A stretch of DNA of 64,000 bases from Patescibacteria group bacterium (GTDB lineage: Bacteria > Patescibacteriota > Minisyncoccia > Moranbacterales > JAKLHP01): assembly GCA_043803385.1 (NCBI GenBank), contig JAZDKA010000041.1, positions 19,799-83,798 on the forward strand. The letters run 5' to 3'. How positions within the stretch are numbered: position 1 is the first letter of the stretch; each line of letters opens with the position of its first letter. Both the position numbers and the translations under genes were made by a program. Shown one piece after another: positions 25,614-52,952 of the stretch. Under the pieces are notes generated by a model, which was given only the letters and a program-made list of their open reading frames with translations, searched no databases and was not told the DNA's origin.

Positions 25614-25784
25614 TCCCAGCACCAATTCCGAGATAGTCTTTAATAAATTTGATAGTTTATTCTTGGAATCGCCTCGCCTGAGGCAGGCTTGGCTTTAGCT
25701 GGTTATGGTATGAAATTCACATTGCGAATTAGTGCGGGATGCTCAATTTTATAGCTACTCGCTCTGCTCGCAGACAAAATTGGC
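25614..25784 (-). repeat. Family B MITE-like element copy B1, abutting the start codon of the PD-(D/E)XK nuclease gene
   Basis: TIRs atcccagcaccaattcc / gaattagtgcgggatgc and the conserved core aggcgattcc. It ends ...cgcagacaaaattggc-ATG. Confidence 0.75.
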
Positions 25785-26900
25785 ATGCGAATCTCTTATT
25801 CCGCTCTGGAAACTTACAAAACCTGTCCTCTGAAGTACAAATTTCAGGAAATTGACAGGATAAAGACTCCCAAATCCAAGGAGGCAGTTTTTGGTACGAT
25901 TTTGCATTCCACGCTTAATTTTATCCATACTCCGAGCATGCTTTCCCCCACTTTGGAGCAGGCGCTGGATTATTTTTCCCGCAATTGGAATAGTGATGTT
26001 TTTGAGAATGAATTAGAAGAAAGATCAGCATTTTCCCAAGGAGTTTCAATGATTCAGGATTATTACAAAAAAAATGATCCGACAAAAACAAATGTAGTTG
26101 ATTTAGAAAGCAGATTTACAATAGAACTAGGCGACCATATCGTTTCCGGAATTATTGACCGGATCGATAAGACCGAAGATGGCTATGAAATCGTTGACTA
26201 TAAGACGACCAAAAAAATGCCTTCTCAAAATAAGGTTGATAATGATTTGCAATTATCCATTTATCTCCAGGCGTTTCTTAAAAGATATCCTAAGGAAATC
26301 GAAAACATTGATAAAATAAAAGTAAGTTTGTATTATCTCAAGCATGGAGTGAAGCTTACTTCCACTAGAACAGTTGATCAGCTCAAAAAAATCGATGATT
26401 TATTTTTGGATGTTATCAAGCAGATCGAAGAAGGAAAATTTGACGCGCAAATTAATCCCCTTTGCGACTGGTGCGGATACCAGAATGCCTGTCCGATGTG
26501 GAAACACAAGTTCAAGGAAAAGAGAAAAATTGACACGGAAGAGGTGAATAAAATTATTGCCGAGTACATTGCCAGTAAATCCCAAATCACAACTCTCAAA
26601 TCACAACTCTTGAATCTGGAAGATAAAATCTCGGAATATATGGATCAAGAAAGCGTGGAAAGAGTTTTTGGAGAAAACGGAATTATTGCCAGGACATTGC
26701 GAAAAACTTATAAATACGATGAAAAAAAGATTAGGGAAATACTCGAACCACTCGACAAATGGGAAGATGTTTTGAAAGTCGACGGAATCGCGCTCAAAAA
26801 TATATTAGCCGTCTTGCCTTTTAACGCCAAAAAAGAAATTGAAAAAGCGAAAGTGGTGGATAAGGAAAGCAAGAGCTTTAGCGTGAAAAAATCAAGTTAA
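25785..26900 (+). CDS. PD-(D/E)XK nuclease superfamily protein (Cas4/AddB-like, C-terminal 3-4 Cys cluster)
   Basis: N-terminal SYSALETYKTCPLKYKF, ...IDRID...YEIVDYKT (D..E.K motif), and C-terminal CDWCGYQNACPMW. Confidence 0.7.
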   Translation: MRISYSALETYKTCPLKYKFQEIDRIKTPKSKEAVFGTILHSTLNFIHTPSMLSPTLEQALDYFSRNWNSDVFENELEERSAFSQGVSMIQDYYKKNDPTKTNVVDLESRFTIELGDHIVSGIIDRIDKTEDGYEIVDYKTTKKMPSQNKVDNDLQLSIYLQAFLKRYPKEIENIDKIKVSLYYLKHGVKLTSTRTVDQLKKIDDLFLDVIKQIEEGKFDAQINPLCDWCGYQNACPMWKHKFKEKRKIDTEEVNKIIAEYIASKSQITTLKSQLLNLEDKISEYMDQESVERVFGENGIIARTLRKTYKYDEKKIREILEPLDKWEDVLKVDGIALKNILAVLPFNAKKEIEKAKVVDKESKSFSVKKSS

Positions 26901-26905
26901 TGATA

Positions 26906-27016
26906 AATTACCAATTTCCAATGTCAAATCAATATCAAAAACCAAAATCCAAATTTTTTGACATTTAGTCATTTAGGCTTGATTGGAAATTTGACATTTG
27001 ATATTTGGATTTTCAG
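26906..27016 (+). repeat. Family D palindromic element copy D1
   Basis: attaccaatttccaa...ttgacatttagtcatttaggcttgattggaaatttgacatttg. A reverse-complement copy lies at 29708-29790. Confidence 0.7.
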
Positions 27017-27042
27017 GCTATTTTTTAAATAAGATATTTCTA

Positions 27043-27528
27043 ATGAAAAACAAATTTAAGAATTTAATTAAACAGTTTTTTCTCATTAACGATACTCCTC
27101 AAAAGATTTCCGGTGGCGCGGCTCTCGGAATTTTTTTGGGTATTTTTCCCGGAGAAGGAGTATTCTCTACTTTATTTTTTGCGGCTGTTTTCAGATTAAA
27201 CAAATTAGCAGCTACTGCCGGAGTGCTGGCGACCAATATGTGGATGACAGCGGTAGCGCTTCCCGCAGCTGCTTTTGTCGGCGGATTTTTATTCAATGAA
27301 AAATATTCTGACCTGATCCGTCAATTTCAGAATTACCGGCATACGGATACGATAAAAGAGGTCTTTCTTTTCAGCCTCTCTATTTTTTCCCAAACTTTTC
27401 TTCCGCTTCTGGTCGGTTTTTTTGTCGTCGCCGGAGCAATTTCACTAGGCTTTTATTTTCTTTTACTTTTTATTTTAAAGCGAAAGCATATCGAACATCT
27501 GAAAGACGCGATACGGATTAGAAAATAA
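27043..27528 (+). CDS. DUF2062 family membrane protein
   Basis: The start is taken at MKNKFKNL, because the ORF-track start lies inside repeat D1. Has the ...ISGGAALGIFLGIFPGEGVFSTLFFAAVFRLNKLAA... signature. Confidence 0.55.
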   Translation: MKNKFKNLIKQFFLINDTPQKISGGAALGIFLGIFPGEGVFSTLFFAAVFRLNKLAATAGVLATNMWMTAVALPAAAFVGGFLFNEKYSDLIRQFQNYRHTDTIKEVFLFSLSIFSQTFLPLLVGFFVVAGAISLGFYFLLLFILKRKHIEHLKDAIRIRK

Positions 27529-27624
27529 GCATTACCATAATGCTTGAAATTCCGTCACTCGTCTTAAATAAAAGCAAGCTTTTATTTATAAACTCGCTAG
27601 GAATTATAAAAAATCCGGATAGCT

Positions 27625-27652
27625 CTCTCAAGAACTATCCGGTTTATTTCTC
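27625..27652 (+). terminator. Rho-independent terminator
   Basis: ccggatag-ctctctcaagaa-ctatccgg followed by tttatttct. Confidence 0.6.
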
Positions 27653-27669
27653 GTTGTCCCCCCTTCCCG

Positions 27670-28779
27670 TTAGGTGTTGAATTCCAGGAGTATTTTCTCC
27701 CACCTCTCTGGAAATAAATCGGGACCCGTGCATGAGGTAACTGTATCAGCTCCCATATCGAGGGATTCCGTGACATCATCCTTATCCATTATCCCACCAC
27801 CTTTGATTAGCCAAAGGTTTACTTTTTTTCTCAACCCAGAAAAATAATCGTTACCCAACTTCTTAATTATCTTTCCAGAAACCGCTCCACCTCCGACTTT
27901 TTGCAATGGCGATCTTTGGCTATCTCCATATACAATCGAGAATGGGACAGCATTAATAGCATGAATAGCTTTCACGCCAATAAGCTCCGCTTCCTGGCAA
28001 AAATCATAAGTGTGCAGAAAACCGACTTTTGCTATAATATCCACGCCCTTTCGTTTGGCATTGGGGGCTATTAACCGTAAAAACATCAGAGATTTTTCCA
28101 TGGCCTTGTCTATGTCCTTATTCGTGTCTTCCTGCCTATTCGGGCAATACATAGCCAGTTCTATTTTACTGAATTTTCCCCCCATCGTCAGCTTTAGCTG
28201 ATTGATGACATCGGTGAATTGCAGAACAAGAACGTAAATGTTTTTAGAAAGATCGGGAAAAAAGTTGGGAATAGCCCAAATACCTTTTTTTGAGGATTTT
28301 CCGATTCTTTCGATGCTCTTTTTTGCTCCAGGACCAGTGTGATTATAGGAGTTTAATAATCCCATTTTGTTTCTTGTTCCAAAAAACTTCCAGAATTCAT
28401 ACGGGCTTATTATTTCTCCATTTTTGTGGATTCTCTGGATATACTTCCATGTCCACGGCCACCATATGTGAAAGTTTCCGTTCCATTTCGGGTAAGTAAA
28501 TGACTTTCCCTCAATGGGAGTCCGCGTGTCAATCGCAGTTTTGAGAAGCCCATTATACGAAGATTTCAAAATGCTGGGGAAAATTCCGTCACAATAAATC
28601 CCGAAAAGCGAATTTAAAGATATTTTTGGCATCCAATCCATTTTTTCACCTCTTTGAGTTATTTTTGAAACTTTATTCAATTCTCTTTGGAAACAATAGT
28701 TTCTCACCGTTCCAGGGATTTTTGACGATGCCATTGTTGTAGATAATATCGTCAATCTTTTCCTCCAGTTCATATCCAA
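27670..28779 (-). CDS. Dihydroorotate dehydrogenase family (FMN TIM-barrel) protein, divergent (TTG start)
   Basis: Has a YCPN active-site motif, GGGAVSGK (GGLSG-like), and LIKGGGIMDKDDVTESLDMGADTV (GGI..G.DA...GA). An unusual N-terminal insert (W-rich). Confidence 0.5.
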   Translation of the reverse strand: MDMNWRKRLTILSTTMASSKIPGTVRNYCFQRELNKVSKITQRGEKMDWMPKISLNSLFGIYCDGIFPSILKSSYNGLLKTAIDTRTPIEGKSFTYPKWNGNFHIWWPWTWKYIQRIHKNGEIISPYEFWKFFGTRNKMGLLNSYNHTGPGAKKSIERIGKSSKKGIWAIPNFFPDLSKNIYVLVLQFTDVINQLKLTMGGKFSKIELAMYCPNRQEDTNKDIDKAMEKSLMFLRLIAPNAKRKGVDIIAKVGFLHTYDFCQEAELIGVKAIHAINAVPFSIVYGDSQRSPLQKVGGGAVSGKIIKKLGNDYFSGLRKKVNLWLIKGGGIMDKDDVTESLDMGADTVTSCTGPDLFPERWEKILLEFNT

Positions 28780-28901
28780 CTGTTTTTCTGGAAATATTTA
28801 AGCCGAAGAAATCGGCTACGTTCCATGAGATAAGCTGGCAAACTTGTTCGTCCGAAATTTCAAGCTTTTTGGCAAAGTTAATTGTTAATGAACTGCCTCC
28901 A
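28676..28901 (-). pseudogene. Possible remnant of an amidohydrolase (dihydroorotase-like) C-terminus: ~75 codons, no start, +1 frame relative to the downstream gene
   Basis: Manual translation gives ...GGSSLTINFAKKLEISDEQVCQLISWNVADFFGLNISRKTVGYELEEKIDDIIYNNG..., which resembles the amidohydrolase C-terminal consensus (..ea....T.NPA...GL). There is no ATG and it overlaps the DHOD-like start. Confidence 0.3.
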
Positions 28902-28988
28902 AATTTAACTCATATTACCAATTTACAATAAATAAATCAAGTCAAAGCAAGGCTTTTGACCTTGCTTTTAAGACTGTACTAATATTGA

Positions 28989-29696
28989 TTAAAACCTCAA
29001 ATAATCTCTCCAATATCTATATAATTCTCTCGTCGCTTTGATATCACCAACATTATATTTGGCAATTTCCAGATATTTTTTTTCTTTAAATAACTTTCCA
29101 ACATCATCTCCGGTTATGCCTTCCGCTTTGGGGCTTTTGATCCCAAATGCCCGGCACCAGAGATGCAAATTTCCACGCCTTCGCATGGCGCCGTAAAAGC
29201 TTAATTGATCTAGCAAATCTATATGCTTTGAATCATATTTTTGACTGCCTATATATTTATGGGACATCAAATTCTTTGAAGGCCGAATATTGTGGATAGC
29301 CGAACGAACCATCAAGAACGGCACATCAAATCCCATTCCATTGAAACTTACAAATTCCTGATATTTTTCGCACAGCTTCCAAAATTGCTCCAGCATTTCT
29401 TTTTCTGACATCGGCTTGAGTTTTATTCCCCCTTCATCCGATTCTTCCTTTTTTTCTCCCGGTGATTGATAATAAACTCCGCCTTTGTCTTCCTCGCTGT
29501 CTAAAACTCCAATAGCAACAATTTCACCAGTTAAAGGAGAAAATCCTAATCCATTTTTCAAATCTTCCAGGGCAGTTTCATATTCTTTCTCATTCTGGGT
29601 TTCTCTTTTTATCCAGCGTGTCAAAGAATCCTTCGTTGTGCTATCTAATTTATCGTAATTTTCTCCCACTGTTTCTATATCAAAGATAAGTGCCAT
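28989..29696 (-). CDS. RNase H-fold 3'-5' exonuclease (DnaQ/PolB-exo-like)
   Basis: Exo I motif FDIET near the N-terminus, further acidic motifs (GFDVPFL), and YxxxD near the C-terminus. Confidence 0.65.
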   Translation of the reverse strand: MALIFDIETVGENYDKLDSTTKDSLTRWIKRETQNEKEYETALEDLKNGLGFSPLTGEIVAIGVLDSEEDKGGVYYQSPGEKKEESDEGGIKLKPMSEKEMLEQFWKLCEKYQEFVSFNGMGFDVPFLMVRSAIHNIRPSKNLMSHKYIGSQKYDSKHIDLLDQLSFYGAMRRRGNLHLWCRAFGIKSPKAEGITGDDVGKLFKEKKYLEIAKYNVGDIKATRELYRYWRDYLRF

Positions 29697-29707
29697 ATAG
29701 TTAGTCT

Positions 29708-29790
29708 TTAATTTCAAAATCCAAATGACAAATTTCCAATCAAGCCCAAATGACTAAATGTCAACTATTTGGAAATTGGTAATTTGAAAT
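29708..29790 (-). repeat. Family D palindromic element copy D2
   Basis: Reverse complement of D1 but lacking D1's ~35-nt internal segment. Confidence 0.7.
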
Positions 29791-30488
29791 TATTTAATGA
29801 TCGTTCCTTTAAACTTCTTCCCATCCATATAATTTCCCAGATTCATTAAATCTCGGCCGTTCATAATTGCCACCTCGATATTTTCTTCCTGGGCGATTTT
29901 GGAAGCAATTGGGTCGAAGGGCGCGTTCATCCCGGGATCCCACTTATCCCCCACTATTTTTCGGAAATCTTTCCAGGAAATTTTTTCTATTTTCTTAGCA
30001 TCGGGAAATTTTCGGGGATCCTTAGTGTAAACGTAATCAATATTGGATAGATTAACCACTCGCTTGATATCCATATATTTTGCCAGAATTACCGCGTCGT
30101 AATCAGAAGAAAAGCCCGGTCTCCAGCCAGCTCCAATTAAAATAGATTCTTTGAAGTTATAGAAATCTTCCAGATCGTGAGGATTGGTATTTATTCTTGG
30201 ATGGGCATAATTTCTGAAAATTGTTCTTAGAAAATGTCCATTCATTCTGGTCGCGTGAATTCCCAACCAATCTTTGTCATCATTGGTGACAGAGCTATCG
30301 CCTACCTTGACTGAAGCCTCGATATATTTTCTGGCTGTTTTTCCTCCTCCGGTAATTAAGATAAATTTATAACCTTTTTTGATGTAGCCAACAATTAATT
30401 TCTTGAAGTTTTTTACAAATTGAGCATCGATTTCATCGGGAACGATGAGCGATCCTCCAAGAGAGATTACGATGGTTTTTTTTGCCAT
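29790..30488 (-). CDS. pyrH: UMP kinase (amino-acid kinase family)
   Basis: Start taken at MAKKTIVISLGGSL. Has ITGGGKTARKYI and ILIGAGWRPGFSSDYDA...YTKDPRKFPDAKK. Confidence 0.75.
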   Translation of the reverse strand: MAKKTIVISLGGSLIVPDEIDAQFVKNFKKLIVGYIKKGYKFILITGGGKTARKYIEASVKVGDSSVTNDDKDWLGIHATRMNGHFLRTIFRNYAHPRINTNPHDLEDFYNFKESILIGAGWRPGFSSDYDAVILAKYMDIKRVVNLSNIDYVYTKDPRKFPDAKKIEKISWKDFRKIVGDKWDPGMNAPFDPIASKIAQEENIEVAIMNGRDLMNLGNYMDGKKFKGTIIK

Positions 30489-30655
30489 TTTTGTCTGCGA
30501 GGTACGAGCAGCTACAAAAATGAGCATCCCGCACCAATTCTATTAGTTAACTTTTTATTATTTAAAATTAAGCCGCACTTGCCTAAAGTAAGGCGATTCC
30601 GTGAATAAAACTATAAATTTACTCAAGGATATATTCGGAATTGGTGCGGGAAGGC
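30489..30655 (-). repeat. Family B MITE-like element copy B2, filling the whole HIT-pyrH spacer
   Basis: TIRs gagcatcccgcaccaattc / gaattggtgcgggaag and the core aggcgattccgtgaataaaa. It ends ...cgcagacaaaa-ATG. Confidence 0.8.
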
Positions 30656-31105
30656 TTACTTGTTTAATTTAATTATTCTAGCGATTTTTTGGAGTTCTTT
30701 TATATCGGCTTGCTGACCTAATTGAGTTGTCAAATAGCCTTGATATTTTTTCAAAAATACTTTTTCTTTTGCCCAAACTGCTTTAAATTCCGGTCCGACG
30801 CCATGAAGTGGATATAATTTTATATGCGCGTGATTAACTCCCATTCCTTCCATTACTATTGCTACCCTGTTCACTTTTAATCCTTTCTTGAGGAGCTTAG
30901 CCACTTTCTTGGCGGCCAGAAAAAAATCTTTGTAAATTTTGTCATCCATCTCAATCGCATCAGAATCGTAATGCTTTTTCAGCATCACCAGCGCCATTCC
31001 CTTGGTATTGGGAAACGCATCTAAAATGGCGAGAAAATTTTTGTCTTCCCAGATTTTTACTGATGGAATTTCTCCTTTGATAATTTTACAAAAAATACAA
31101 GACAT
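30656..31105 (-). CDS. HIT family (histidine triad) protein
   Basis: CIFCKII...; the histidine motif is GVNHAHIKLYP. Confidence 0.85.
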   Translation of the reverse strand: MSCIFCKIIKGEIPSVKIWEDKNFLAILDAFPNTKGMALVMLKKHYDSDAIEMDDKIYKDFFLAAKKVAKLLKKGLKVNRVAIVMEGMGVNHAHIKLYPLHGVGPEFKAVWAKEKVFLKKYQGYLTTQLGQQADIKELQKIARIIKLNK

Positions 31106-31113
31106 AAATACTG

Positions 31114-31206
31114 ACTACGAATTACTAATCAAGTACAAATATACCAATATACGAATTAAAAAATATTAGTACATTCGTATATTTGTATTAAATTCGTAGT
31201 TCGTAG
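31114..31206 (-). repeat. Family A MITE-like palindromic element, reverse-complement copy
   Basis: >90% identical to the reverse complement of 7210-7302. Confidence 0.8.
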
Positions 31207-31212
31207 AGAAAA

Positions 31213-31656
31213 TCATTTAAAACAACTCGCCGCTCTCTGGTATCCTTTCTTTTGCGCTTCTGCTTCGCTTCCGAAGCAAACCTTATTTTCCGGCTTTATG
31301 CGCTTGGCATATGAACAGCTGGGAGGATAATATTTGTCGGAATTTTTACTACCTACGAAAGAGCAGCTTGTTGAGGTTTTCGGGGCTTCCTCCCCTATCT
31401 TAGTAGAAACCTCGCCTAACGTCAAATTTTGCGTTTTTTGGCTGTCTTGGGGGCTACTTGGAGTATTTGCATATTGGGCTGGTTTTTCAATAATTAGGGC
31501 TGGTTTTTGCCATTTTTCACCTTTCAGGATCCCAAATTGAAAGGAAATGGCAGCTACCAAAATTAGACCGAAAAGCAGCACTATTTTTTGCTCATATTTA
31601 AGCCAAACTTGCTTGATTTTCAGAAAATGCTTATTCTTGGGTTTTTCAGTTGACAT
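31213..31656 (-). CDS. Membrane-anchored protein with C-terminal Cys-rich putative metal-binding domain
   Basis: N-terminal TM segment and C-terminal CSFVGSKNSDKYYPPSCSYAKRIKPENKVCFGSEAEAQKKGYQRAASC. Confidence 0.45.
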   Translation of the reverse strand: MSTEKPKNKHFLKIKQVWLKYEQKIVLLFGLILVAAISFQFGILKGEKWQKPALIIEKPAQYANTPSSPQDSQKTQNLTLGEVSTKIGEEAPKTSTSCSFVGSKNSDKYYPPSCSYAKRIKPENKVCFGSEAEAQKKGYQRAASCFK

Positions 31657-31687
31657 AATTGATTTTTCTCGCTATATTTATGAAGTT

Positions 31688-31734
31688 AAATCACTAATCA
31701 ACGCGAATTAACTCTCGAATGCTCACGAATAGTC
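31688..31734 (+). repeat. Family G short repeat (aaatcactaatcNacgcNaattaactNtcgaat..tcacgaata)
   Basis: A second copy is at 38688-38735. Confidence 0.55.
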
Positions 31735-31794
31735 TAAAAATTATTAGTGATAATTTGTGATTAAAATTAGAGTAGATTCGCGATTTATATCATT

Positions 31795-32067: not shown

Positions 32068-32089
32068 ATTATCAAAAAAACTTTTATAA

Positions 32090-35849: not shown

Positions 35850-35941
35850 TTCTAACCGATTCGAAATTACGAAAAATTATGCGAATCTGCAAAATTTTTG
35901 TTCGTAGATTCGCATTCAATTCGTAGTTTCGCATCGGGTCT
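35850..35941. repeat. Degenerate family A-related repeat (tacgaa/ttcgtag motifs)
   Basis: cgaaattacgaa...ttcgtagattcgcat...aattcgtag. Confidence 0.45.
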
Positions 35942-36739
35942 TTATAATAATTTCTTCTTGGCTATATTTTTTAATTCCTCATTGAATTCAGCGATTGCTT
36001 TTTCAATGAGCGGATCGAATTTTTTGTAAATTTCTTTTTTCTTGACAATATTCCCCGCTTCAAGAAGCGAATCGAATGTTCCGGCATCCAGCCATTCGCC
36101 TTTCACAATGCCTACTTCCAGCTCGCCTTTTTCCAAATAATAATTATGGAGAGAGGTAATTTCTATTTCTCCCCTATCGGAAGGCTTTACTTCTTTAGCT
36201 ACTTTCAAAACCTGATTGTCATAAATATAAAGTCCGGGAATGGCATAATCACTTATCCATTCTTTTGGTTTTTCTACTATTTTAATGGCTTTATTATTTT
36301 CATCGAATTTCACAACGCCGGATCTTTCCGGATCATTCACCTTTTTGGCGAATATTTTTCCTCCAGACTTAAAATTCTTAATATCCTCGGAAAAATCATC
36401 TTCAAAAATATTATCTCCCAGGATCATTGTTACGTTGTCATTGTCAATAAAATTTTCTCCGACAATAAAAGCGTCAGCCAAACCTCTCGGAGTTTTTTGC
36501 ACTTCAAAAAACAAATCGATGCCGTAATTTTTAAAAATTGATCCCAGAAGATTAAGGAATTGCCCGCTGTGTTCCGGCGCGACAATGACTAAAATTTCTT
36601 TAATCCCGGCTTTAATTAAGGTATTCAACGGATAGAAAATCATCTGCCGATCATAAACCGGTAAAAGCTGCTTGGATGTCGTAGCGGTGAGAGGGAGTAA
36701 ACGCGTGGCTGTCCCTCCGGCGAGAATAATGCCTTTCAT
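35942..36739 (-). CDS. rmlA: Glucose-1-phosphate thymidylyltransferase-like nucleotidyltransferase
   Basis: MKGIILAGGTATRLLPLT..SKQLLPVYD..MIFYPL. Confidence 0.75.
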   Translation of the reverse strand: MKGIILAGGTATRLLPLTATTSKQLLPVYDRQMIFYPLNTLIKAGIKEILVIVAPEHSGQFLNLLGSIFKNYGIDLFFEVQKTPRGLADAFIVGENFIDNDNVTMILGDNIFEDDFSEDIKNFKSGGKIFAKKVNDPERSGVVKFDENNKAIKIVEKPKEWISDYAIPGLYIYDNQVLKVAKEVKPSDRGEIEITSLHNYYLEKGELEVGIVKGEWLDAGTFDSLLEAGNIVKKKEIYKKFDPLIEKAIAEFNEELKNIAKKKLL

Positions 36740-36912
36740 GCAATTTTTATCTGCGAGCGTAGCGAGCAGCTATAAAAATTAGCATCCCGCACCAATTCGC
36801 AGTTTATATTTTAATTTTTTTGAAATTTGAGCCGCAGCCTGCCTCAGGCGAGGCGATTCCGTGAATAAAATTATAAATTACCCGTAGCTTTATTCGGAAT
36901 TGGTGCTGGACA
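36740..36912 (-). repeat. Family B MITE-like element copy B3 (its right TIR supplies the last codons and stop of rmlD)
   Basis: ttagcatcccgcaccaattc ... gcctgcctcaggcgaggcgattccgtgaataaaa ... cggaattggtgctgg. Confidence 0.8.
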
Positions 36913-37825
36913 AGTATTCCTTTAATGCTTCTTTCCAGCTTCGAAGTGGGTTTAGTTTGGTATTTATCAAAACTGAAATTTCCGGTCTTTTGGCTGGCCT
37001 TTTGAGGTCTTTCGAAGCTATCGGAATAACTTTAGTTTTGACTTTCTTTAACTTATATAATTCTAACGCGGCTTGGTGCCATGTGCAAGCGCCGGAATTG
37101 GTAACGTGATAAATTCCAAAAGGTTTTTTGGCTTCAACTATTTCTTTAGTTTTTCGCGCCAAATCCGGCGCGTAAGTATAGCAGCTTATTTCATCGTTAA
37201 CTATTTTTACAGATTTATTTTTTCCCCCTAATTCTAGCATTACATCAAAAAAACTTTTTTTTGCTCCTTCGGCTTTGGCAGGTTTTCCGAATAATTTTGA
37301 AGTTCGGATAATATAATACTTCTTAGTGTTCTTTTGAACTTCTATTTCTCCCAAAAGTTTTGTTTTTCCGTATTTATTTATTGGTTTCGGCTTGTCGCTT
37401 TCCTTAAATCCTATTTCCGGCTGAAAATTAGCGTGAAGCATGCAGGAATGACAAGAATGAGCGCATCCCTCCGGCTCTTCTATTTTTGGCTTTCCGTCAA
37501 AAACATAATCAGTTGAATAATGAATGAACATTGCTCCGATTTTTTTGGCGATTTTAGCGAGATATCCTAGAGCCAATCCGTTTATTTTTTTGGCAATTTC
37601 AAACTCTTTTTTTTCTTCGCATTTATCCACAGCATTGTAAGCGGCGGAATTGATAATAATTTTAGGATTTATCACTTTAATTTTTTTGTGAACGGCCACT
37701 TCATTGGCAATATCCAAATCATCTTTGTCCCAAGCGATAACTTTGTAATCCTTATCAGACTTAAAGACAGAAACCAATTCCTGTCCCAGCATTCCTTTCG
37801 CGCCGATTATTAGTATCTTTGCCAT
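36890..37825 (-). CDS. rmlD: dTDP-4-dehydrorhamnose reductase
   Basis: Start taken at MAKILIIGAKGMLGQEL (Rossmann fold). Has YGKTKLLGE (YxxxK). The ORF-track N-terminal extension MVRDAH... is read-through into repeat B4. Confidence 0.75.
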   Translation of the reverse strand: MAKILIIGAKGMLGQELVSVFKSDKDYKVIAWDKDDLDIANEVAVHKKIKVINPKIIINSAAYNAVDKCEEKKEFEIAKKINGLALGYLAKIAKKIGAMFIHYSTDYVFDGKPKIEEPEGCAHSCHSCMLHANFQPEIGFKESDKPKPINKYGKTKLLGEIEVQKNTKKYYIIRTSKLFGKPAKAEGAKKSFFDVMLELGGKNKSVKIVNDEISCYTYAPDLARKTKEIVEAKKPFGIYHVTNSGACTWHQAALELYKLKKVKTKVIPIASKDLKRPAKRPEISVLINTKLNPLRSWKEALKEYLSSTNSE

Positions 37826-37984
37826 TTTTATCTTCGAGTGAAACGAGAAGCTATAAAAATGAGCATCCCGCACCAATTCTTTAAATTAAACTTTTTTATT
37901 ATTTGAGATTAAGCTGCAGGCGATTCCGCGGATATAGATTTTTAATATTGCATATATCTATATTCGGAATTTGGTGCGGGATTT
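37826..37984 (-). repeat. Family B MITE-like element copy B4
   Basis: gagcatcccgcaccaattc ... aggcgattccgcggata ... cggaatttggtgcggga. Confidence 0.8.
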
Positions 37985-37986
37985 CA

Positions 37987-38694
37987 TTATTCATTTATTA
38001 TTTTTTCTAAATATTCTTTAATTTTCAATTGCTCTTCGAATGAATTTTCCAGTTCAATGCTGATAATATCAGGCATATATTTCAGGTATTTTTTGATGTA
38101 GTTTAATTCTTTTAAATCATTCAGAGTGTGGATATCATATGATGGCTCACAATAAGTATATGGAAATAATTCTTTTGATACTCCAGATATATGGCAACAG
38201 CCAATCGGATATTTTTGTATTAGTTTCTCAAAATCAGCGTATTTTTTATTGTTCTTTTTAATTCCATTTTCCCAATGCGAGAAATCAATGCATAATCCAT
38301 TTCCCAGTGATGATATTTCATCTGAAATTGGCACAAAATCCGTATTTTCTAAATAAATTATATTTTTGTATTTAGAATAATCATAATTTACAGGAAATTC
38401 TTTGGGGGAATGAATATTGAAAACCGCTGTCTTAAATTTACTTACGAAATAATTTAATTCATCAACCGGCATATCATCTGGTCTTAAGTGCACATGCGGG
38501 ATTGATTCAATGCCGGTTTTTTCGAGTAAATTATATAGTTCTTTTCTTTCCTCGTTTTTTAAAAAAGTTGGAAAAAGAGCAAGTTCTTTAATATTAAATT
38601 TATCTATTTCTTTGATTTTTTCTCTCCAGTCCGATCCGGGAGTGGTCGTTAGCCCTAATAAAATTTTCTTTTGAGGCATAATAATATAAATCAC
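37987..38694 (-). CDS. Hypothetical protein inside the rml cluster
   Basis: A 235-aa ORF with no recognisable motif. Confidence 0.45.
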   Translation of the reverse strand: MIYIIMPQKKILLGLTTTPGSDWREKIKEIDKFNIKELALFPTFLKNEERKELYNLLEKTGIESIPHVHLRPDDMPVDELNYFVSKFKTAVFNIHSPKEFPVNYDYSKYKNIIYLENTDFVPISDEISSLGNGLCIDFSHWENGIKKNNKKYADFEKLIQKYPIGCCHISGVSKELFPYTYCEPSYDIHTLNDLKELNYIKKYLKYMPDIISIELENSFEEQLKIKEYLEKIINE

Positions 38695-38735
38695 TAATCT
38701 ACGCTAATTAACTTTCGAATTATCACGAATAATTT
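38688..38735 (+). repeat. Family G short repeat copy 2, followed by a perfect 14-bp palindrome ttattcagtatact/agtatactgaataa
   Basis: aaatcactaatctacgctaattaactttcgaattatcacgaataat. Confidence 0.55.
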
Positions 38736-38764
38736 ATTCAGTATACTAGTATACTGAATAAACA

Positions 38765-43088: not shown

Positions 43089-43239
43089 AAAACCGATGCG
43101 AATCTACGAATTAAATGCGAATCTACGAAATGTATGAATCGCGAAGTTGACTTAGTAATCTAGCAAAGATGAGTTATATTGTCAATGTTTTTAGGCTTCA
43201 ATAATATTCGGATAGTTTTAATTTATAAATTTCATAAAT

Positions 43240-46433: not shown

Positions 46434-46492
46434 ATATTTAGGGTTAATTTTTATGGTATTTTCAGAACCTCGTATTCTAGCAGATAACTACA

Positions 46493-46575: not shown

Positions 46576-46578
46576 TTT

Positions 46579-47433: not shown

Positions 47434-47449
47434 GATTTTAATTCAAAAA

Positions 47450-47995
47450 CTATTTTGCGTATCTTTTGTAAGTTTTTACAGAACCTGCAGCTACTAATCC
47501 TGAAGCGGCTAAAATTCCAAGCAGTCCCGGAATTCCTGCTCCCGTAGCTGGCAATACTTTCTTGGTTATATAAACTTTTTTTCCGTCTTTATTATGAGTG
47601 TAATAAACCTTCTTTCCGTTTTTGTATTCGTAATGATCATTATTATGATCCTTATTTCCGTTATCTTTATCAACGTCTACCTCCACCTTTGTTTTTGAAG
47701 TTTGGCTAACAGAAGCGCTACCGCCAGTAGTTGACCGCGACTGGCTTTGAGATTGCGACTGTGATTGCGATTGTGATGATTGCGCAAGCTGTGAAGACGA
47801 AGATTGTTTCTGGCCTTGAGATTGCGACTGTGATTGTGATTGCGTTGCAGTTCCTCCTGTCGCAGTTGCCGTGTTTTTGTTAGTATTTTTCACGCTAACG
47901 TTTACGTCAGCGAATGCCAAATTTACAGCCAAAAAACACAAGGCTACGGCTGAAATAGCAAGCATTGACGCATAGATTATTCCCCTTTTTGCCAT
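47450..47995 (-). CDS. LPXTG-motif cell-surface protein (sortase substrate) with Ser-Gln repeats
   Basis: Signal peptide, (SQ)n low complexity, and a C-terminal LPATGAG + hydrophobic stretch + KTYKRYAK sorting signal. Confidence 0.65.
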   Translation of the reverse strand: MAKRGIIYASMLAISAVALCFLAVNLAFADVNVSVKNTNKNTATATGGTATQSQSQSQSQGQKQSSSSQLAQSSQSQSQSQSQSQSRSTTGGSASVSQTSKTKVEVDVDKDNGNKDHNNDHYEYKNGKKVYYTHNKDGKKVYITKKVLPATGAGIPGLLGILAASGLVAAGSVKTYKRYAK

Positions 47996-48122
47996 ATTGA
48001 TTAAGTATATTAATAATTATTACCCGATAAGGGATTTTGTAGGCTAACAGATATCCGGTTTTTTGTCAAGTAAAAATGCCGACAGTTAGCCGGCAAGTAT
48101 AAATCTTTTTAAATATGATTTT

Positions 48123-49298: not shown

Positions 49299-50017
49299 CT
49301 TGAGCTGGTTAATATCAGCCCGATTATTATGCTGAATACGATTAAATTTACAATTATCCTTTTTTTGGAAAGCTTTCTTGAAAAGTAGCTGTTAGCCATA
49401 TCCCAAAACACATAATAGAAAATAAGGGCTATTACTCCGGTTGTCAAGTATCCGAACGGCCAGAAATTTATTACCCATGAAAGTTCCGCCATAGCCATGG
49501 AGAGTATCAAACTATAATTCAGGATTTTCTTTTTGTCTTTGGAAATAACGCTGAAATAATGATAGCTTAAAATAAAAGTAATAGCCAGAAAAGCAAACAT
49601 CAGTATAGTTAGCGGAATGGAAAAATTTATGTAAATTCCGTAAAATCCGGCATAGAAAAAGAAAGCCGATGCCATTATCGCTCCCGCGTAAACTCCGGCA
49701 GCTGTCTGATCTTTGGAATAATTTTTGAGCCGATATATTCCAAGAAGAATAAAATAGAATACAGTAGAAGAAAAAATAATAAATATCTGTTTTTCTAATG
49801 GAAAGTCTATAAGATAAAATAGAACTATCGATGACAGGGAAAATAGCATCGGAATAACGGAAAAAGAATATTTTTCCCCCAGCCTTTTTCCCGCAAAGAA
49901 TGAAAAAAACAAAAAAAATGCCGCCAAAAACCAAACGAGATTTTCATTGAGATAAATAAGTTCAAAAGCAGATAAAAACAATACGGAATAAAATAGAGAT
50001 TTAAGGTGAAAAAACAT
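49280..50017 (-). CDS. Hypothetical polytopic membrane protein
   Basis: A 245-aa protein with ~7 predicted TM helices. Confidence 0.45.
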   Translation of the reverse strand: MFFHLKSLFYSVLFLSAFELIYLNENLVWFLAAFFLFFSFFAGKRLGEKYSFSVIPMLFSLSSIVLFYLIDFPLEKQIFIIFSSTVFYFILLGIYRLKNYSKDQTAAGVYAGAIMASAFFFYAGFYGIYINFSIPLTILMFAFLAITFILSYHYFSVISKDKKKILNYSLILSMAMAELSWVINFWPFGYLTTGVIALIFYYVFWDMANSYFSRKLSKKRIIVNLIVFSIIIGLILTSSRWQLAV

Positions 50018-50137
50018 ATACCGGAAATTACTAATTTCTAATTATTCTAATTTCTAATCAAATCCCAATTACTAAATTTTCTAATTTAAAAAATTAGAAA
50101 TTAGGTTAATTAGGTCAATTAGAAATTTTATTTTATT

Positions 50138-51364
50138 TTATTTTATTTCCTCCAACGTGGCTTTTACGTCATTCGTACTTCCTTTATGCCAGACTTTTAA
50201 CGTTATTGTGTCTCCGACATTGTAATTAGCAATAAGATCGCTAAGCTGGTTGCTGTCATTTACTTTGGTTCCATTTACTTCCAGTATTATATCATTTTCA
50301 ACTATTCCGGCTTTGTCAGCTGGAGAATTGGGCATTACTGCCAGATCTGTCGGCTTTGATCCCCTCAAGACAAGTGCGCCGTAGCCAAAAGGAAGATTAT
50401 TGTCGGACTGAATCTGCTTGTCTATAATAACGCTTCTTACTCCCAGATAAGGAGTTGATATTTTTCCCGTAGCATTCACTTGGTCCACTATTTTTTTTAT
50501 CTGGTTGGAAGGAATCGCGAATCCTATATTTTGAGCGCCTTGAGCTATGGCTACGTTTATGCCTATAACATTACCGCTGATGTCCAAAAGCGGACCGCCT
50601 GAATTTCCGGGATTTATGGCGGCATCCGTCTGAATTATATTGGAAAGCTGCTCGGTTTGTCCAAGGCCTGATCCGGCAGTCAGATTCCGGCTTAGGCCGG
50701 AGATAATGCCCTTGCTCACTGTATTATAAAACTCTCCTAAAGAATTTCCAATGGCGATAACAGTTTGTCCCACTTTCAAATTGTTCGAATCCCCAAAACT
50801 CAAAGTGGGAAAATTATTTCCTTCGACTTTGATTATTGCGATATCCTTAACTGGATCTCTGGCTAGAACTTTGGCTGGATATTCTTTTCCGTCATTTGCT
50901 ATAACGGTGTAATCAGCGTTTGCGTCGCTTACCACATGCTTATTGGTTGCTACTAATCCATTTTGATTTACCAGAAATCCTGATCCGGCGCCCACTGTTT
51001 GCTTCTCGGTGCCGCTACTTTGATTTTCTTCGAGGTCATTGAAAAACCCGAAAGGATCTTGGAAAAAGCTCCTGTATTTTGGCACATCCTTTGAAATAAC
51101 GATGCTAACAACTGCCGGAGTAGATTTGTTTACTGTTTCTATCACAGTCGATTCTTCCTCGGTGATATTTTGATTTACTGCTTGATTCGATTGGTCCGTT
51201 TTCTTTCCTATGGAAATTTTTCCACCCATAAATCCAAATACTGCTCCAAAAAAAGATGAAAGCAGGATCGAAAGTATGATTGCTGTTGTGAATATTGATT
51301 TTGAAGCACTCTTGACGCTATCTTGTTTTGGAATTTCTTGTTCTCGATTAGTTATATTTTCCAT
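50138..51364 (-). CDS. htrA: Serine protease HtrA/DegP (active triad) with PDZ domain
   Basis: Has TNKHVV (His), DIAIIKV (Asp) and GNSGGPLLD (Ser), plus a C-terminal PDZ domain. ATG start chosen at MENITNREQ; the ORF track used an upstream TTG. Confidence 0.85.
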   Translation of the reverse strand: MENITNREQEIPKQDSVKSASKSIFTTAIILSILLSSFFGAVFGFMGGKISIGKKTDQSNQAVNQNITEEESTVIETVNKSTPAVVSIVISKDVPKYRSFFQDPFGFFNDLEENQSSGTEKQTVGAGSGFLVNQNGLVATNKHVVSDANADYTVIANDGKEYPAKVLARDPVKDIAIIKVEGNNFPTLSFGDSNNLKVGQTVIAIGNSLGEFYNTVSKGIISGLSRNLTAGSGLGQTEQLSNIIQTDAAINPGNSGGPLLDISGNVIGINVAIAQGAQNIGFAIPSNQIKKIVDQVNATGKISTPYLGVRSVIIDKQIQSDNNLPFGYGALVLRGSKPTDLAVMPNSPADKAGIVENDIILEVNGTKVNDSNQLSDLIANYNVGDTITLKVWHKGSTNDVKATLEEIK

Positions 51365-51574
51365 ATTGGGAATAGATTTTAATTTTGGTTTTATATTTAA
51401 GACTTGCGCATTTGCCTCTGTCAAAGCCGTAGCTCCGGCGCGATGACGGACAATTTTGTAATCGCGCCTCCGAAAACGGCTTGTCATAGTCAAATACGCA
51501 AGCTTCGCTTTTTTTATCAAATTATTGCTTAAATGTCCGCATTAGTCTGCGTTAAGTCCGCGTAGGTCGGCGGA

Positions 51575-51757
51575 CTATTCTTCCATTGAAACAGCACTTA
51601 CTGGACAGCTGTTAATAACTTCTTCGCAGTTGCATTCCCCGCATTCGTCTGCGATCACTTTTGATTTCCCATTTTCAACTTTAAAAACATCGGGGCATGT
51701 TGACTCGCATGTTCCGCATCCAATGCAAGTATCCTCATCTACTTTTGGTTTTGGCAT
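51575..51757 (-). CDS. 4Fe-4S ferredoxin
   Basis: CIGCGTCESTCP and CGECNCEEVINSCP cysteine motifs. Length 60 aa. Confidence 0.8.
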   Translation of the reverse strand: MPKPKVDEDTCIGCGTCESTCPDVFKVENGKSKVIADECGECNCEEVINSCPVSAVSMEE

Positions 51758-51765
51758 AAAAAATT

Positions 51766-52810
51766 TTAAAATAATACTGATGCATCTCCCTGGGAGTTGT
51801 TTATTATTTCCTTTTCGAAATTTTTCATTGGTTCATCTTTGAAATCAACGGTTTCTTCTTCTTTGTTCCAGGAATAATCTTTGGAAAATACCATGATTTT
51901 CATTTTTTTCATTTCTTCGTAAAGAAATTCTCCGAAAGTTTTTTTGGGCAGAAAAATCTGCCTTATTCTTATAAGTTCGGAATCATTTTCTGTTTTTTTG
52001 TCTTCCACTTCAATAATATGGAATCCAAGGGAGCTTTCAATAATGTCGCTTATTTTCCCCTTGTCTGAAGCAAAGACTGCCTTCGATACTTCTTCAATGA
52101 GCTGGTCTTTTTTGAACCACCCAAGCTCTCCCCCATCTTGGGCAGTTGATCCTTTTGAATATTCCATGGCGACATCGGCAAAAACTTTCTTCTTATTGAG
52201 TTCGGCTTTTGCTTTTTCTATTTGTTCTTTTCCTTTCTTGACCGAACTATCTCTGGATGCAAATATTTTTTCAAGCTCCTGGCGGTATAGATCCGGTTTC
52301 ACGACTTTTTCCTTAAAATCATCAATTGACCAGCCGTATAGTTTTTCCAGGTTATTATTCAAATTATCTCCCGTTCCGTATTCTTCCATTTTTCTGCTTA
52401 AATTTTGGCTGACCATCGCATCCGTTATCTTCATACCTTCTTTTCGGGCTAAAATTTCAATCGCTTTGTCTTCGATCATTCTTTCGAGTACTTCTTTCTC
52501 TTTCATCTTCAGCCTTTTTTTTCCATTTTCAGTGGAAAAATCCACCCGCAAATCAACTTTCGAAAAATCCTGGTTTTCATAAAATTTCTTCACTGATTCA
52601 AGATTGTTATTGAGATTTTTAAATGTGATAAAATTATAATTATTCAAAACCGCAACCGGATATGGGATTATTTTTTCCATTTTTTTAACAGCCTTATAAT
52701 CTTTTCCAAATCCGTAAATAAGAATGCCAAAAACAACGATAATAGCTACAGCTACTATCAAACTAGAGTAAACAATAGTTGATATTTTTACTTCATTATC
52801 TTTTGCCATA
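51766..52810 (-). CDS. PpiC-type (parvulin) peptidyl-prolyl cis-trans isomerase, SurA/PrsA-like
   Basis: Start taken at MAKDNEV. N-terminal TM segment. The parvulin domain carries GGELGWFKKDQL...GFHIIEV. Confidence 0.75.
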
Positions 52811-52952
52811 ATTGTCTTTGAGCGTAGCGAGAAGCTACAATTATGAGCATCCCGCATCAATTTTTTAACTGATATTTATATTTATCCAGGTAAGCCGTAG
52901 GCGATTCCGTGGATAAAACTAGCTTTTGTTTTAAATTTTATTCGAAATTGAT
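52811..52952 (-). repeat. Family B MITE-like element copy B5
   Basis: gagcatcccgcatcaattt ... aggcgattccgtggataaaa ... gaaattgattgcggga. The TIRs show co-varying substitutions. Confidence 0.75.

Follow-up and report, generated by a model that had tools for sequence, protein, structure and literature searches.

A strongly folded insertion element of about 170 bases between the stop and start codons of Moranbacteria genes

In a stretch of 64,000 nucleotides from a Patescibacteria contig (the window, at its full length), five copies of a repeat lie precisely in the gap from the stop codon of one gene to the start codon of the next, which raises the question of what such a sequence is and what it could do there. 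This repeat, family B, is an undescribed, strongly folded insertion element of Moranbacteria of about 170 bases. A covariance model (R1) run over the whole window gave five strong matches of 110–160 bits, so the five copies reported by a first-pass annotation are real, and otherwise yielded only weak reverse-strand echoes; nhmmer over the window found no additional copies. The sequence GCATCCCGCACCAATTC occurs six times at up to 3 mismatches against 0.14 expected, and a core 20-mer four times against 0.01 expected. Pfam agrees with the gene names proposed earlier for the neighbours, namely PD-(D/E)XK nuclease, amino-acid kinase (PyrH-like), HIT, RmlA-type nucleotidyltransferase, RmlD and PpiC. 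The copies and their parts lie at the following positions:

25570–25598, plus strand: promoter, sigma-70-like (TTGATA-17-TATACT), directly upstream of B1
25609–25792, plus strand: B1, whole element (R1 match 110 bits), upstream of the PD-(D/E)XK nuclease gene (ATG 25785)
25614–25628, plus strand: B1, 5′ arm of stem P1, TCCCAGCACCAATTC
25726–25739, plus strand: B1, 3′ arm of P1, GAATTAGTGCGGGA
25740–25785, plus strand: B1, hairpin 2, TGCTCAATTTTAT / inner AGCT..CAG / ACAAAATTGGCA; stem triplet AUU, real ATG from 25785
30476–30656, minus strand: B2, whole element (147 bits), from HIT (stop 30656–30658) to a pyrH-like gene (ATG 30488–30486)
30638–30651, minus strand: B2, 5′ arm of P1
30571–30601, minus strand: B2, conserved junction CGGAAUCGCC and P3, carrying a private hairpin insert
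30527–30540, minus strand: B2, 3′ arm of P1
30483–30526, minus strand: B2, hairpin 2, whose 3′ arm holds the start codon AUG and codon 2 (GCA)
36732–36915, minus strand: B3, whole element (132 bits), between rmlD and rmlA
36739–36784, minus strand: B3, hairpin 2; stem triplet AUU with compensating AAU in the 5′ arm, rmlA ATG 36739–36737
37813–37986, minus strand: B4, whole element (160 bits), from a hypothetical gene (stop 37987–37989) to rmlD (ATG 37825–37823)
37820–37865, minus strand: B4, hairpin 2, including the rmlD start codon
52797–52964, minus strand: B5, whole element (151 bits), from a DivIC-like gene (stop 52972–52974) to the PpiC-type isomerase gene (ATG 52809–52807)
52804–52849, minus strand: B5, hairpin 2, variant CAUAAUUGU / ACAAUUAUG, a compensated double change
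55386–55459, minus strand: P1-like hairpin standing on its own, related to the element, CCCCGCAC...GUGCGGGG, beyond the stop of gene 55505–57304

The earlier description, in which each copy abuts or supplies the upstream stop and is directly followed by an ATG, holds in part. The HIT stop is 4 nt away and the rmlD stop lies within B3, but B1 has no abutting upstream gene; in B2, B4 and B5 the ATG is inside the conserved 3′ arm (ACAAAAAUGGCA) rather than after it, and in B1 and B3, where the stem triplet is AUU, the real ATG begins 5–6 nt further on (GC-AUG). B3 provides the final 6 codons of rmlD (SSTNSE) and its stop (TAA 36890–36892; CCGAAUAA). An identical NCBI protein was found for this rmlD (P0001), and its C-terminus is derived, KEYLSSTNSE before the stop versus KEYLKN or KK in relatives. 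B1 would be part of a 5′ UTR, since the promoter-like site at 25570–25598 adjoins it upstream, and the same promoter-then-element arrangement recurs in L039, L048, L069, L070 and L031.

The element was inserted, because the closest sister genomes, with RmlD 80–85% identical and the same gene order, have empty rml sites with bare spacers of 6 nt (B4 site) and 10 nt (B3 site). This bears out the proposal that a non-coding element, dispersed and polymorphic for insertion, occupies stop-to-start gaps. In a further relative (L038) the element is missing from pyrH and from the nuclease gene, and its presence varies at nusG, rplK, rplD, rpsC, rpsN, pyrH and the nuclease gene. Insertions share one orientation and fall within the few bases that separate a stop from the next start. 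At the two clean junctions, rmlD and rmlA, where an empty locus (L072) was compared with the filled window, a short spacer has been replaced and target-site duplication is absent; a partial GGCU / AUGGC repeat is weakly conserved. Within genomes the element is dispersed among non-homologous loci: the paralogues B1–B3 have a P3 insert in common, an identical P2 is common to L017 and L050, at three different genes, and P1-type hairpins are nested within the hairpin 2 apex of L008 and L056. The name MITE, given to it earlier, fits a short, non-coding, multi-copy sequence with empty sites, but not one whose inverted repeat is not terminal and which has no target-site duplication at two junctions.

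Covariance-model and pattern searches of genomes and metagenomes recovered about 150 distinct Moranbacteria copies, 165–190 nt long, with no conserved ORF and with 1–7 exact-pattern matches per genome. Rfam gave no match at gathering scores anywhere in the window, and at E<10 nothing meaningful emerged; nor did anything similar appear in the searched literature or in viral contigs. We regard family B as a lineage-specific non-coding insertion cassette whose host is one Candidatus Moranbacteria clade. Moranbacteria belong to the candidate-phyla-radiation bacteria, whose genomes are tiny and densely packed and whose expression signals and mobile DNA are almost unknown. Here, operon gaps of 6–10 nt are open to colonisation by a structured cassette of 170 nt that rebuilds the stop and start signals.

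The RNA has two modules, with a folding energy of -58 kcal/mol (z = -6.5). In domain 1 a closing stem of 13–19 bp, P1, encloses helices P2 and P3 and an AU-rich linker; in hairpin 2 a U-rich arm pairs with the A-rich initiation region, including AUG GCA. The arms of P1 are the “terminal inverted repeats” of the first-pass annotation; the left one does lie within about 5 nt of the 5′ boundary, but some 45 conserved nt, those of hairpin 2, follow the right one. Hairpin 2 (12 bp, a 2-nt bulge, 4 bp, a 2x2 loop and 2 bp) has a predicted geometry compatible with an RNase III processing site of the T7 R1.1 type. In these folds the AUG is unpaired with a probability of 0.20, against 0.37 for the genome background, a predicted start-codon occlusion that exceeds the background modestly. 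As for alternative pairings, AAUUCC is able to pair into P1 or P2, and GCUCAU with the 5′ flank (GGCU) or with AUGGCA.

Several observations suggest a modular, terminator-like origin. Short forms (L011, L033, L035, L055, L067) consist of a plain GC hairpin, a U-rich run and then hairpin 2, and they fit an intrinsic terminator well (L055: GCAUCCCGCAguaCUGCGGGAUGC UCAAUUUU). P1 also occurs alone after a stop codon, with a promoter next, in L031 and at 55386–55459 of the window, where TTGACA-17-TATGCT follows; the latter shows the P1 module in solo use as a terminator-like hairpin. Full-length copies have about 100 nt inside the stem, and their U-run begins 2 nt past it; since about one copy in three has a broken run (CAUAAUUGU and the like), P1 is not an efficient terminator everywhere, and a simple terminator scan did not call the full-length copies.

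Both sides change in 29 of 42 pairs, a count reached by none of 500 shuffles, which answers the call for a structural covariation check, and 90.9% of alignment cells are paired. P1 and hairpin 2 are thus preserved as RNA-level helices through compensatory change in place. Orthologous nusG and rplK copies carry compensated differences such as UUUU/AAAA, AAUU/AAUU, AUUU/AAAU and GUUU/AAAC, and the outermost pair of hairpin 2 changes in step with the codon-2 wobble base (U-A 70, C-G 13); once inserted, the element and the host gene's first two codons evolve together. P3 and the junction lack covariation and so offer no test of a binding pocket. With empty sites in sister genomes and a covarying structure, both outcomes that the earlier proposal had set against itself, among them an ordinary conserved spacer, are excluded.

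The stem AUG serves as the start codon in 113 copies, and the next GC-AUG does so in 29. The stem AUG is lost in 21 of these 29, with compensation in the opposite arm in 20 of the 21, and in L002 it opens a 4-codon ORF that overlaps the L24 start, a pattern which argues that ribosomes read the stem AUG. The gene arrangement likewise indicates that the element is transcribed in sense together with the flanking genes: a co-directional gene precedes 57 of 77 copies, its stop typically 0–20 nt upstream, and the remaining copies have canonical TGnTATAAT or TTGnnn-17-TAnnnT promoters 10–25 nt upstream of the element, which is therefore a transcribed leader and not a promoter.

Our best reading, for which we claim somewhat less than an even chance, is an intercistronic cassette that is mobile, is transcribed together with its neighbours, brings stop and start signals with it and gates the translation of the downstream gene. 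Its 5′ end would bring stop codons for the upstream gene, while its 3′ end would bring or match the A-rich initiation region with AUG GCA; being “expression-complete” in this sense, the element would be tolerated and probably kept. Domain 1, an enlarged hairpin of the terminator type with a U-rich run behind it, may act as a transcript boundary, through partial termination and/or as a 3′-end stabiliser of the upstream message. In read-through RNA the U-rich run would fold back onto the start region as hairpin 2, so that downstream translation would require this hairpin to be opened or cut, and the gene would thus be uncoupled from its upstream neighbour. This logic combines the fold-back inhibition of IS10, IS50 and IS200 with the RNase III sites that separate genes of phage T7. 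All three activities, termination, processing and translational gating, are proposed here from sequence; if gating or processing is real, family B would be a natural intercistronic insulator. However, the genes after the element include nusG, rplK, rplC, groL and tsf, which are expected to be highly expressed; this is odd for a repressive hairpin and counts against gating.

Such a cassette has parallels. In IS10, IS50 and IS200, an inverted repeat behind a terminator or outside sequence pairs with the translation start, and outside read-through transcripts are poorly translated; there the device lies inside the element and protects the transposase gene, whereas family B stands before ordinary host genes, and no internal promoter bypassing the 5′ arm of hairpin 2 was found in it. 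The RNase III hairpins of phage T7 (e.g., R1.1) and of the lambda N leader are intercistronic hairpins too; they are equivalent to about 20 bp, and their internal loops or bulges are conserved. Once cut, they leave the upstream message with a protective 3′ hairpin and may free the downstream initiation region. The T7 hairpins, however, are not mobile repeats and hold no start codon. The Rickettsia palindromic elements (RPE) are mobile palindromes of about 100–150 bp that keep reading frames usable, much as B3 rewrites the last codons of RmlD, but they lie in frame within coding regions and are fully translated, whereas family B fills the intercistronic gap and grazes coding ends.

The possibility of a purely selfish palindromic element (MITE-, REPIN- or PATE-like) is unlikely but carries serious weight. 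Its hairpins would serve a trans-acting transposase or recombinase, possibly recognised as bottom-strand single-stranded DNA, and effects on host expression would be tolerated side effects. Empty sites, quick gain and loss, different hairpin families at one orthologous spot, spread within genomes and nested insertions all speak for it. The Correia (NEMIS) elements of Neisseria are MITE-like, 100–155 bp long, with terminal 26-bp inverted repeats and a TA target duplication; they occur in hundreds of copies in either orientation, are co-transcribed, form long mRNA hairpins, alter adjacent expression and vary in presence between strains. Family B is likewise a short, non-coding, palindromic intergenic insertion, co-transcribed, hairpin-forming and polymorphic, but its inverted repeat is sub-terminal, it shows no duplication at two junctions, its copies are few per genome and in one orientation, and its 3′ arm contains a start codon. 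The ERIC/IRU and REP/BIME/REPIN families of proteobacteria are imperfect palindromes in transcribed intergenic regions near stop codons, where they act as mRNA 3′-end stabilisers or decay modulators, and REPINs, like P1, place two inverted arms around a spacer. Start-codon registration and a second, unrelated hairpin set family B apart from these families, and its arms lack the REP-type short palindrome: membership of REP/REPIN, with imperfect palindromes of 20–40 nt and a GTAG head, was rejected, as the P1 arms (AUCCCGCACCAAUUC) are not self-complementary.

The lack of target duplication and the strict orientation recall the single-strand transposition of IS200/IS605. The derived PATE have no terminal inverted repeats and no duplication, insert in orientation 3′ of a fixed target of 4–5 nt, and carry similar sub-terminal hairpins. 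Family B agrees in the absence of duplication, the fixed orientation and one hairpin with a strand-specific signature, but disagrees in its dissimilar hairpins, where IS200/IS605 ends are alike, and in having no fixed target word (ATGGC only partly). No TnpA, RAYT, other transposase or recombinase gene, or autonomous partner was noticed beside the copies in about 200 loci viewed non-systematically, with patterns unable to span a transposase-sized gap. The structured strand would moreover be the leading-strand template if genes run with replication, opposite to the preference of IS608. Against selfishness also stand the low copy number and the persistence of orthologous copies across species, with compensated stems that follow changes at the wobble position of codon 2 and cases where the stem AUG is lost, which points to selection at each locus and not only to a master copy. 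Integron attC sites were rejected as well: neither arm has the AAC/GTT boxes expected of R″/R′ (RYYYAAC ... GTTRRRY), and instead of cassette arrays next to an integrase, core housekeeping genes in conserved synteny flank the element.

One anomaly of hairpin 2 is left unexplained by a purely mRNA-level model. At two adjacent inner pairs, mismatches are of the A.C type in the mRNA sense, which is G.U on the complementary strand (49 A.C-type versus 3 G.U-type cells, and 18 versus 0 in an independent sample). The paired fraction of hairpin 2 is higher on the non-mRNA strand (99.6%) than on the mRNA strand (96.1%), a point which also favours the selfish explanation. The conserved 2x2 loop, which lies outside the search patterns, is GA/AG when read from the template strand, where a GNA triloop accompanies it (compare GCGAAGC); this triloop with tandem G.A is typical of stable DNA hairpins. 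This strand-asymmetric helix is open to testing. It could be joined to the cassette in a distinctly unlikely version, a new kind of mobile “gene-start cassette”, aimed at the gap from stop to start and recognised as a folded single strand, the non-coding one, of the DNA, in which the inner helix (tandem G.A, GNA triloop) would serve strand recognition and the weaker mRNA hairpin would be a shared translational gate for nusG, rplK, ribosomal proteins, groL, recA and other housekeeping genes; if true, transposition would have spread a bacterial counterpart of the common leader regulon.

Quite improbable is a DNA-level signal. Here a protein would recognise hairpin 2 once extruded, either as a cruciform or on the template strand, and use it, for example, as an operator or as a structure-dependent promoter such as those of phage N4. 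The mismatch asymmetry, the loop and an apex about 17 nt before the AUG would suit it, but the asymmetry is limited to those two pairs, the outer stem (5 versus 3) and P1 (18 versus 15) being symmetric. The central loop base of N4 promoters is restricted to purines and that of hairpin 2 is not, we know of no single-subunit RNA polymerase in Moranbacteria genomes with the element, and the stem AUG is lost with compensation, so the region is in mRNA.

Very improbable is a ligand- or protein-sensing leader (riboswitch, ribosomal-protein leader or antitermination site) of a shared regulon. A domain built on a conserved three-way junction (CGGAAUCGCC..GGCUUAG) and, after it, a hairpin that sequesters the start codon would fit, as would the element's recurrence before nusG, rplK and other translation genes and the sequence UGCUCAUUU, which we take to resemble boxA (UGCUCUUUA). 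However, the downstream genes are unrelated (rml, nuclease, PpiC, pilus, hydrogenase maturation, recA, gyrB and others), sister species lack the element at the same genes, a P1 of 13–19 bp is too stable for a switch, the boxA-like bases are exactly those that covary freely, and neither the junction, without covariation to test a pocket, nor Rfam lends support.

Hardly credible, finally, and as far as the letters go already contradicted, is the original model of an outward sigma-70 promoter (TATAGC as its -10) with a leader and attenuator-like alternative folds: the divergent copy L031 (847–1000) does have a canonical TTGACA-17-TAAATT promoter directly after domain 1, replacing hairpin 2, and chance -10-like words such as TAGAAT occur in the AU-rich linker of about 40% of copies, but TATAGC is a minority variant of UGUAGC, without the -7 T, whose variable second base pairs and covaries with the 3′ arm (G-C 66, A-U 5), a consensus promoter scan found none there, the linker has no conserved hexamers, a -35/-10 pair is conserved nowhere in the element, and the real promoters lie upstream of it.

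With about 150 sequences and strong covariation, the motif is defined well enough to enter RNA-family libraries, to sharpen the calling of gene starts in Moranbacteria, and to guide searches of metatranscriptomes for how SD-poor bacteria initiate translation. In line with the lack of Shine-Dalgarno motifs noted earlier, their use in the window is weak: an SD-like 4-mer precedes 13 of 62 genes, compared with 11% of random positions.

Family B is a mobile, lineage-specific, structured and co-transcribed cassette, whose helices are kept in place and interlocked with the host start codon. The five repeats in the window are real, with common words far commoner than in shuffled sequence, and they align over ~170 nt once each is oriented by its downstream gene; the gene names of the first-pass annotation are upheld by Pfam. 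The covariance model of the family (R1) recovers these five, and no others, as strong matches in the window, the remainder being weak reverse-strand echoes of the palindromic stem, and nhmmer is concordant.

Family B copies in the window, each a strong R1 match
B1, 25609-25792, plus strand, before the nuclease gene
B2, 30476-30656, minus strand, before the pyrH-like gene
B3, 36732-36915, minus strand, in the rmlD/rmlA gap
B4, 37813-37986, minus strand, before rmlD
B5, 52797-52964, minus strand, before the PpiC gene

The exact fit between one stop codon and the next ATG, as originally described, holds in part. The conserved 3′ end (ACAAAAAUGGCA) already contains the start codon at B2, B4 and B5; at B1 and B3 it has AUU in that position, with the true AUG 5-6 nt farther on. 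No upstream gene abuts B1, which is preceded by a promoter-like site. The supposed lack of SD motifs in host genes corresponds to a weak SD use in the window (21% vs 11% background), and a clear AAGGAGG follows some divergent copies (L060, L031).

The fold comprises two modules: domain 1, in which the closing stem P1 surrounds P2, P3 and an AU-rich linker, and hairpin 2, with the start codon in its 3′ arm. For B2, the folding energy is -58 kcal/mol (z = -6.5).

Parts of Family B from 5′ to 3′, in gene sense
Lead: short GGCU-A at the 5′ end
P1 5′ arm: UCCCGCACCAAUUC
P2: CCGA...hairpin...UCGG, or a CCA...UGG variant
Conserved junction after P2: GGAAUCGCC
P3: GCC-loop-GGC, with a private hairpin insert in some loops
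After P3: UUAG and an AU-rich linker, ~35 nt
P1 3′ arm: GAAUUGGUGCGGGA
Hairpin 2: UGC-U-CAUUUUUGU / AG bulge / CUnC / UC / GC-triloop-GC / UC / GnAG / ACAAAAAUG-GCA

More distant genomes carry short forms (L011, L033, L035, L055, L067), where a simple GC hairpin (AUCCCGC-loop-GCGGGAU) with a U-rich run after it precedes hairpin 2, so that domain 1 resembles an expanded terminator hairpin. The L055 form (4506-4643) is reversed and lies directly 3′ of a tRNA-Asp gene, its “start-codon” arm overlapping the CCA end of the tRNA. Lone P1-like hairpins also occur after a stop codon and are followed by a canonical promoter (window 55386-55459; L031 847-1000). The one in the window is perfect (CCCCGCACUAACUUUAUAC...GUAUAAAGUUAGUGCGGGG) and sits 45 nt past the stop of gene 55505-57304 (minus strand); 3′ of it, on the minus strand, come TTGACA-17-TATGCT and a 560-nt ORF-free stretch (region 54942-55504) for which Rfam gives no match.

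A 24-nt pattern matched 70 loci in ~35 species-level genomes, nearly all of them Candidatus Moranbacteria/Moraniibacteriota MAGs (a few are otherwise labelled in the records), and none in viral contigs. A second, independent scan of metagenomes, anchored solely on the hairpin 2 core, gave at least 120 matches from groundwater, sediments, lakes and activated sludge; the P1 3′ arm lies directly upstream in 88 of the 110 distinct matches listed, and the remaining 22 mainly show variant arms or hairpin inserts. Positions fixed by a pattern are invariant by construction, and conservation was judged solely from positions outside the respective pattern. Exact-pattern copies are few per genome (1-7), and the window, with five in 64 kb, is unusually rich. 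Rfam searches at gathering and permissive thresholds returned noise alone, such as miRNA models, and nothing resembling Family B is described in the searchable literature on repeats and motifs of Moranbacteria, Parcubacteria, CPR or Patescibacteria.

Insertion of these repeats, first described as MITE-like, is confirmed by orthologous empty sites. The window RmlD is identical to P0001, a protein from an 87-kb contig of an NCBI Patescibacteria MAG. Relatives with 80-85% identical RmlD and the same gene order are without the element (R1 search negative), showing a 6-nt spacer upstream of rmlD (TAA TTTGTT ATGGCAAAGATACT) and, at locus L072, a 10-nt rmlD-rmlA spacer. Since ATGGCAAAG already opens the empty site, neither the start codon nor codon 2 comes from the element, which brought in the A-run that precedes them. 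RmlD ends in KEYLSSTNSE* in the window vs KEYLKN*, KEYLKK* and DHLK* in three relatives, a derived C-terminus indicating that the B3 insertion replaced the last codons, stop and spacer. No target duplication is visible at either rml junction (empty vs filled); ATGGC, considered as one, shows weak conservation on the left side and is missing from B1-B3, and an attC site is ruled out by the absence of R boxes. Two sister rml loci (L071 3437-3775 and L074 3467-3853) hold extra small genes in the rmlD-rmlA gap, a 112-aa ORF and a 128-aa PDDEXK_3 protein, which makes this gap a hot spot for different insertions.

Among the fetched loci, orthologous genes carry Family B, another long-hairpin repeat family or a bare spacer, a three-way occupancy seen at nusG, rplK, rplD, rplX, rpsC, rpsN, rpsQ, secY, pyrH, the nuclease gene, rpmA and nifU. 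Sequence comparison offers evidence for within-genome spread or gene conversion, alongside vertical inheritance. Some features are private to paralogues, such as the P3 insert found solely in B1-B3 or the identical P2 at three genes in L017 and L050, and some orthologous copies are mutually nearest (L006/L045/L042 at nusG; L061/L023 at rplK). Nesting occurs as well: L008 and L056 contain a P1-type hairpin within the hairpin 2 apex, and a 20-nt GC mini-hairpin (CCTGCCTRCCGGCAGGCAGG) in the P3 loop or at the hairpin 2 AG bulge looks like a very small palindromic insertion, nested in the element and moving independently.

Carriers of the mini-hairpin
L042, 5562-5746
L059, 4109-4296
L097, L103, L121, L128 and L141

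The main rival explanation is a purely selfish element. Structural covariation is clear: 90.9% of cells are paired in 75 distinct copies aligned to the model (33-47% in slid controls), both sides change in 29 of 42 pairs, and none of 500 shuffles reaches the observed values. Seven covarying pairs fall in P1 and 14 in hairpin 2; P3 is invariant throughout the aligned copies and supplies no covariation either way, and the P2 extension fits the model poorly (62% paired). At nusG and rplK, orthologous copies from different species have arms that differ yet match (UUUU/AAAA, AAUU/AAUU, AUUU/AAAU, GUUU/AAAC, UUUC/GAAA). Among the matches listed for the independent sample, hairpin 2 closes with U-A in 70 copies and with C-G in 13; on the 3′ side this outermost pair uses the wobble position of codon 2, an alanine codon either way (GCA or GCG). 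The stem AUG is the start codon in 113 of the 149 distinct copies listed; in 29 copies the adjacent GC-AUG is the start, 21 of which have lost the stem AUG (AUU, GUC, AUA...), with a matching change on the opposite arm in 20 of these 21. Such compensated losses indicate that ribosomes can see the stem AUG, and the maintenance of the helix despite them argues for selection at each locus, beyond a master copy. At L002 (4227-4398), the stem AUG starts a 4-codon ORF (MAKL*); its stop and the start codon of the gene for ribosomal protein L24 overlap as AUGA, an arrangement that suggests termination-reinitiation coupling.

A DNA-level hairpin signal is a further, less likely reading. In mRNA sense, hairpin 2 has 49 A.C/C.A cells vs 3 G.U; 99.6% of its cells pair on the complementary strand vs 96.1% in sense, and the complement has the better folding energy in 65 of 66 copies. 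The unconstrained pair of the independent sample (matches listed) is A.C in 18, G.U in 0 and Watson-Crick in 66. This excess is confined to two adjacent pairs beside the conserved 2x2 loop and triloop; P1 and the outer stem are symmetric between strands. On the complement, the 2x2 loop becomes G.A/A.G in tandem and the triloop a GNA loop (GCGAAGC-like), both of them motifs of DNA hairpins with very high stability. The inner helix may be selected on the template strand or in an antisense RNA; alternatively, the mRNA may prefer a widened internal loop there, e.g., a putative processing site. Folding energies had made domain 1 look sense-specific, a reading dropped on the model-based count (P1 18 A.C vs 15 G.U; P2 poorly aligned). 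Other hairpin families in the window have no consistent strand bias.

The outward promoter suspected at TATAGC does not survive: most copies read UGUAGC, the base that varies is paired to the 3′ arm (G-C 66, A-U 5, A.C 4), the -7 T is missing, and a promoter scan makes no call there. No -35/-10 pair is conserved in the AU-rich linker. The invariance of GGGAUGCU, another -10 candidate, is imposed by the search pattern, unbiased copies having GGGGUGCU or GGGACGCU; a sigma-54-like TGG-N8-GC is, by inspection, wrongly spaced, the matching bases of a boxA-like UGCUCAUUU covary freely, and a leader peptide from the upstream AUGGCU is discarded, with ATG in <40% of copies and a frame unconserved because of 1-nt indels. 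A co-directional gene precedes 57 of 77 copies, its stop typically 0-20 nt upstream (two copies overlap its last codons), and elsewhere canonical promoters, either TGnTATAAT or TTGnnn-17-TAnnnT, are found 10-25 nt before the element; it therefore belongs to the transcript. Downstream stand what we take, mostly from N-terminal sequences, to be nusG, nusB, rplK, rplC, rplD, rplX, rpsC, rpsQ, rpsN, rpmA, tsf, groL, recA, gyrB, secY, pyk, nrd, mreB, smc, uvrA, trpS, fmt, pilus and hydrogenase-maturation genes, besides the five window genes, a set so ordinary and diverse that a metabolite-specific regulon is ruled out.

Family B could persist by giving the upstream gene a stop and the downstream gene a start region. 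Domain 1 would act as a transcript boundary, and hairpin 2 would make downstream translation contingent on its opening or cleavage, a logic similar to that of IS10/IS50/IS200 fold-back inhibition and T7 RNase III sites. The boundary role has its weak point in the U-run after P1, often interrupted; gating has two, a weak accessibility contrast (predicted start-codon occlusion is modestly above background) and the presence of Family B at highly expressed genes. Nearest in behaviour are the Correia/NEMIS and ERIC elements, and Family B belongs among co-transcribed palindromic intergenic insertion elements, a known kind; its start-codon embedding, co-evolution with codon 2 and strand-asymmetric helix are unusual.

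The window also has further long AT-rich hairpins, a second repeat set with TACGAAT/ATTCGTA words that stops ~10 nt short of start codons; at the orthologous positions, other Moranbacteria have these hairpins, Family B or a bare spacer.

TACGAAT/ATTCGTA hairpins
7194-7326
12366-12410
31090-31215
35850-35940
43090-43135
62313-62361

A separate family of CACTAATC / GATTAGTG words occurs at 31687-31790 and 38687-38736, one copy being a long hairpin upstream of rpmA (L27), where the relative L038 has Family B. A three-hairpin block is duplicated at 1725-1851 and 3575-3701 (91-98% identity), each upstream of a plus-strand gene, and near-identical, terminator-like 43-nt palindromes (AAAACTTAAATT..AATTTAAGTTTT) lie at gene ends (17468-17513 and 24589-24631). 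The adjacent genes 71-1231 and 1241-1720 end in the same tail (1190-1231 and 1679-1720), presumably SEC-C-like, and tandem GATTGCGACTGTGATTG-type repeats are found at 47741-47847, within ORF 47450-47995.
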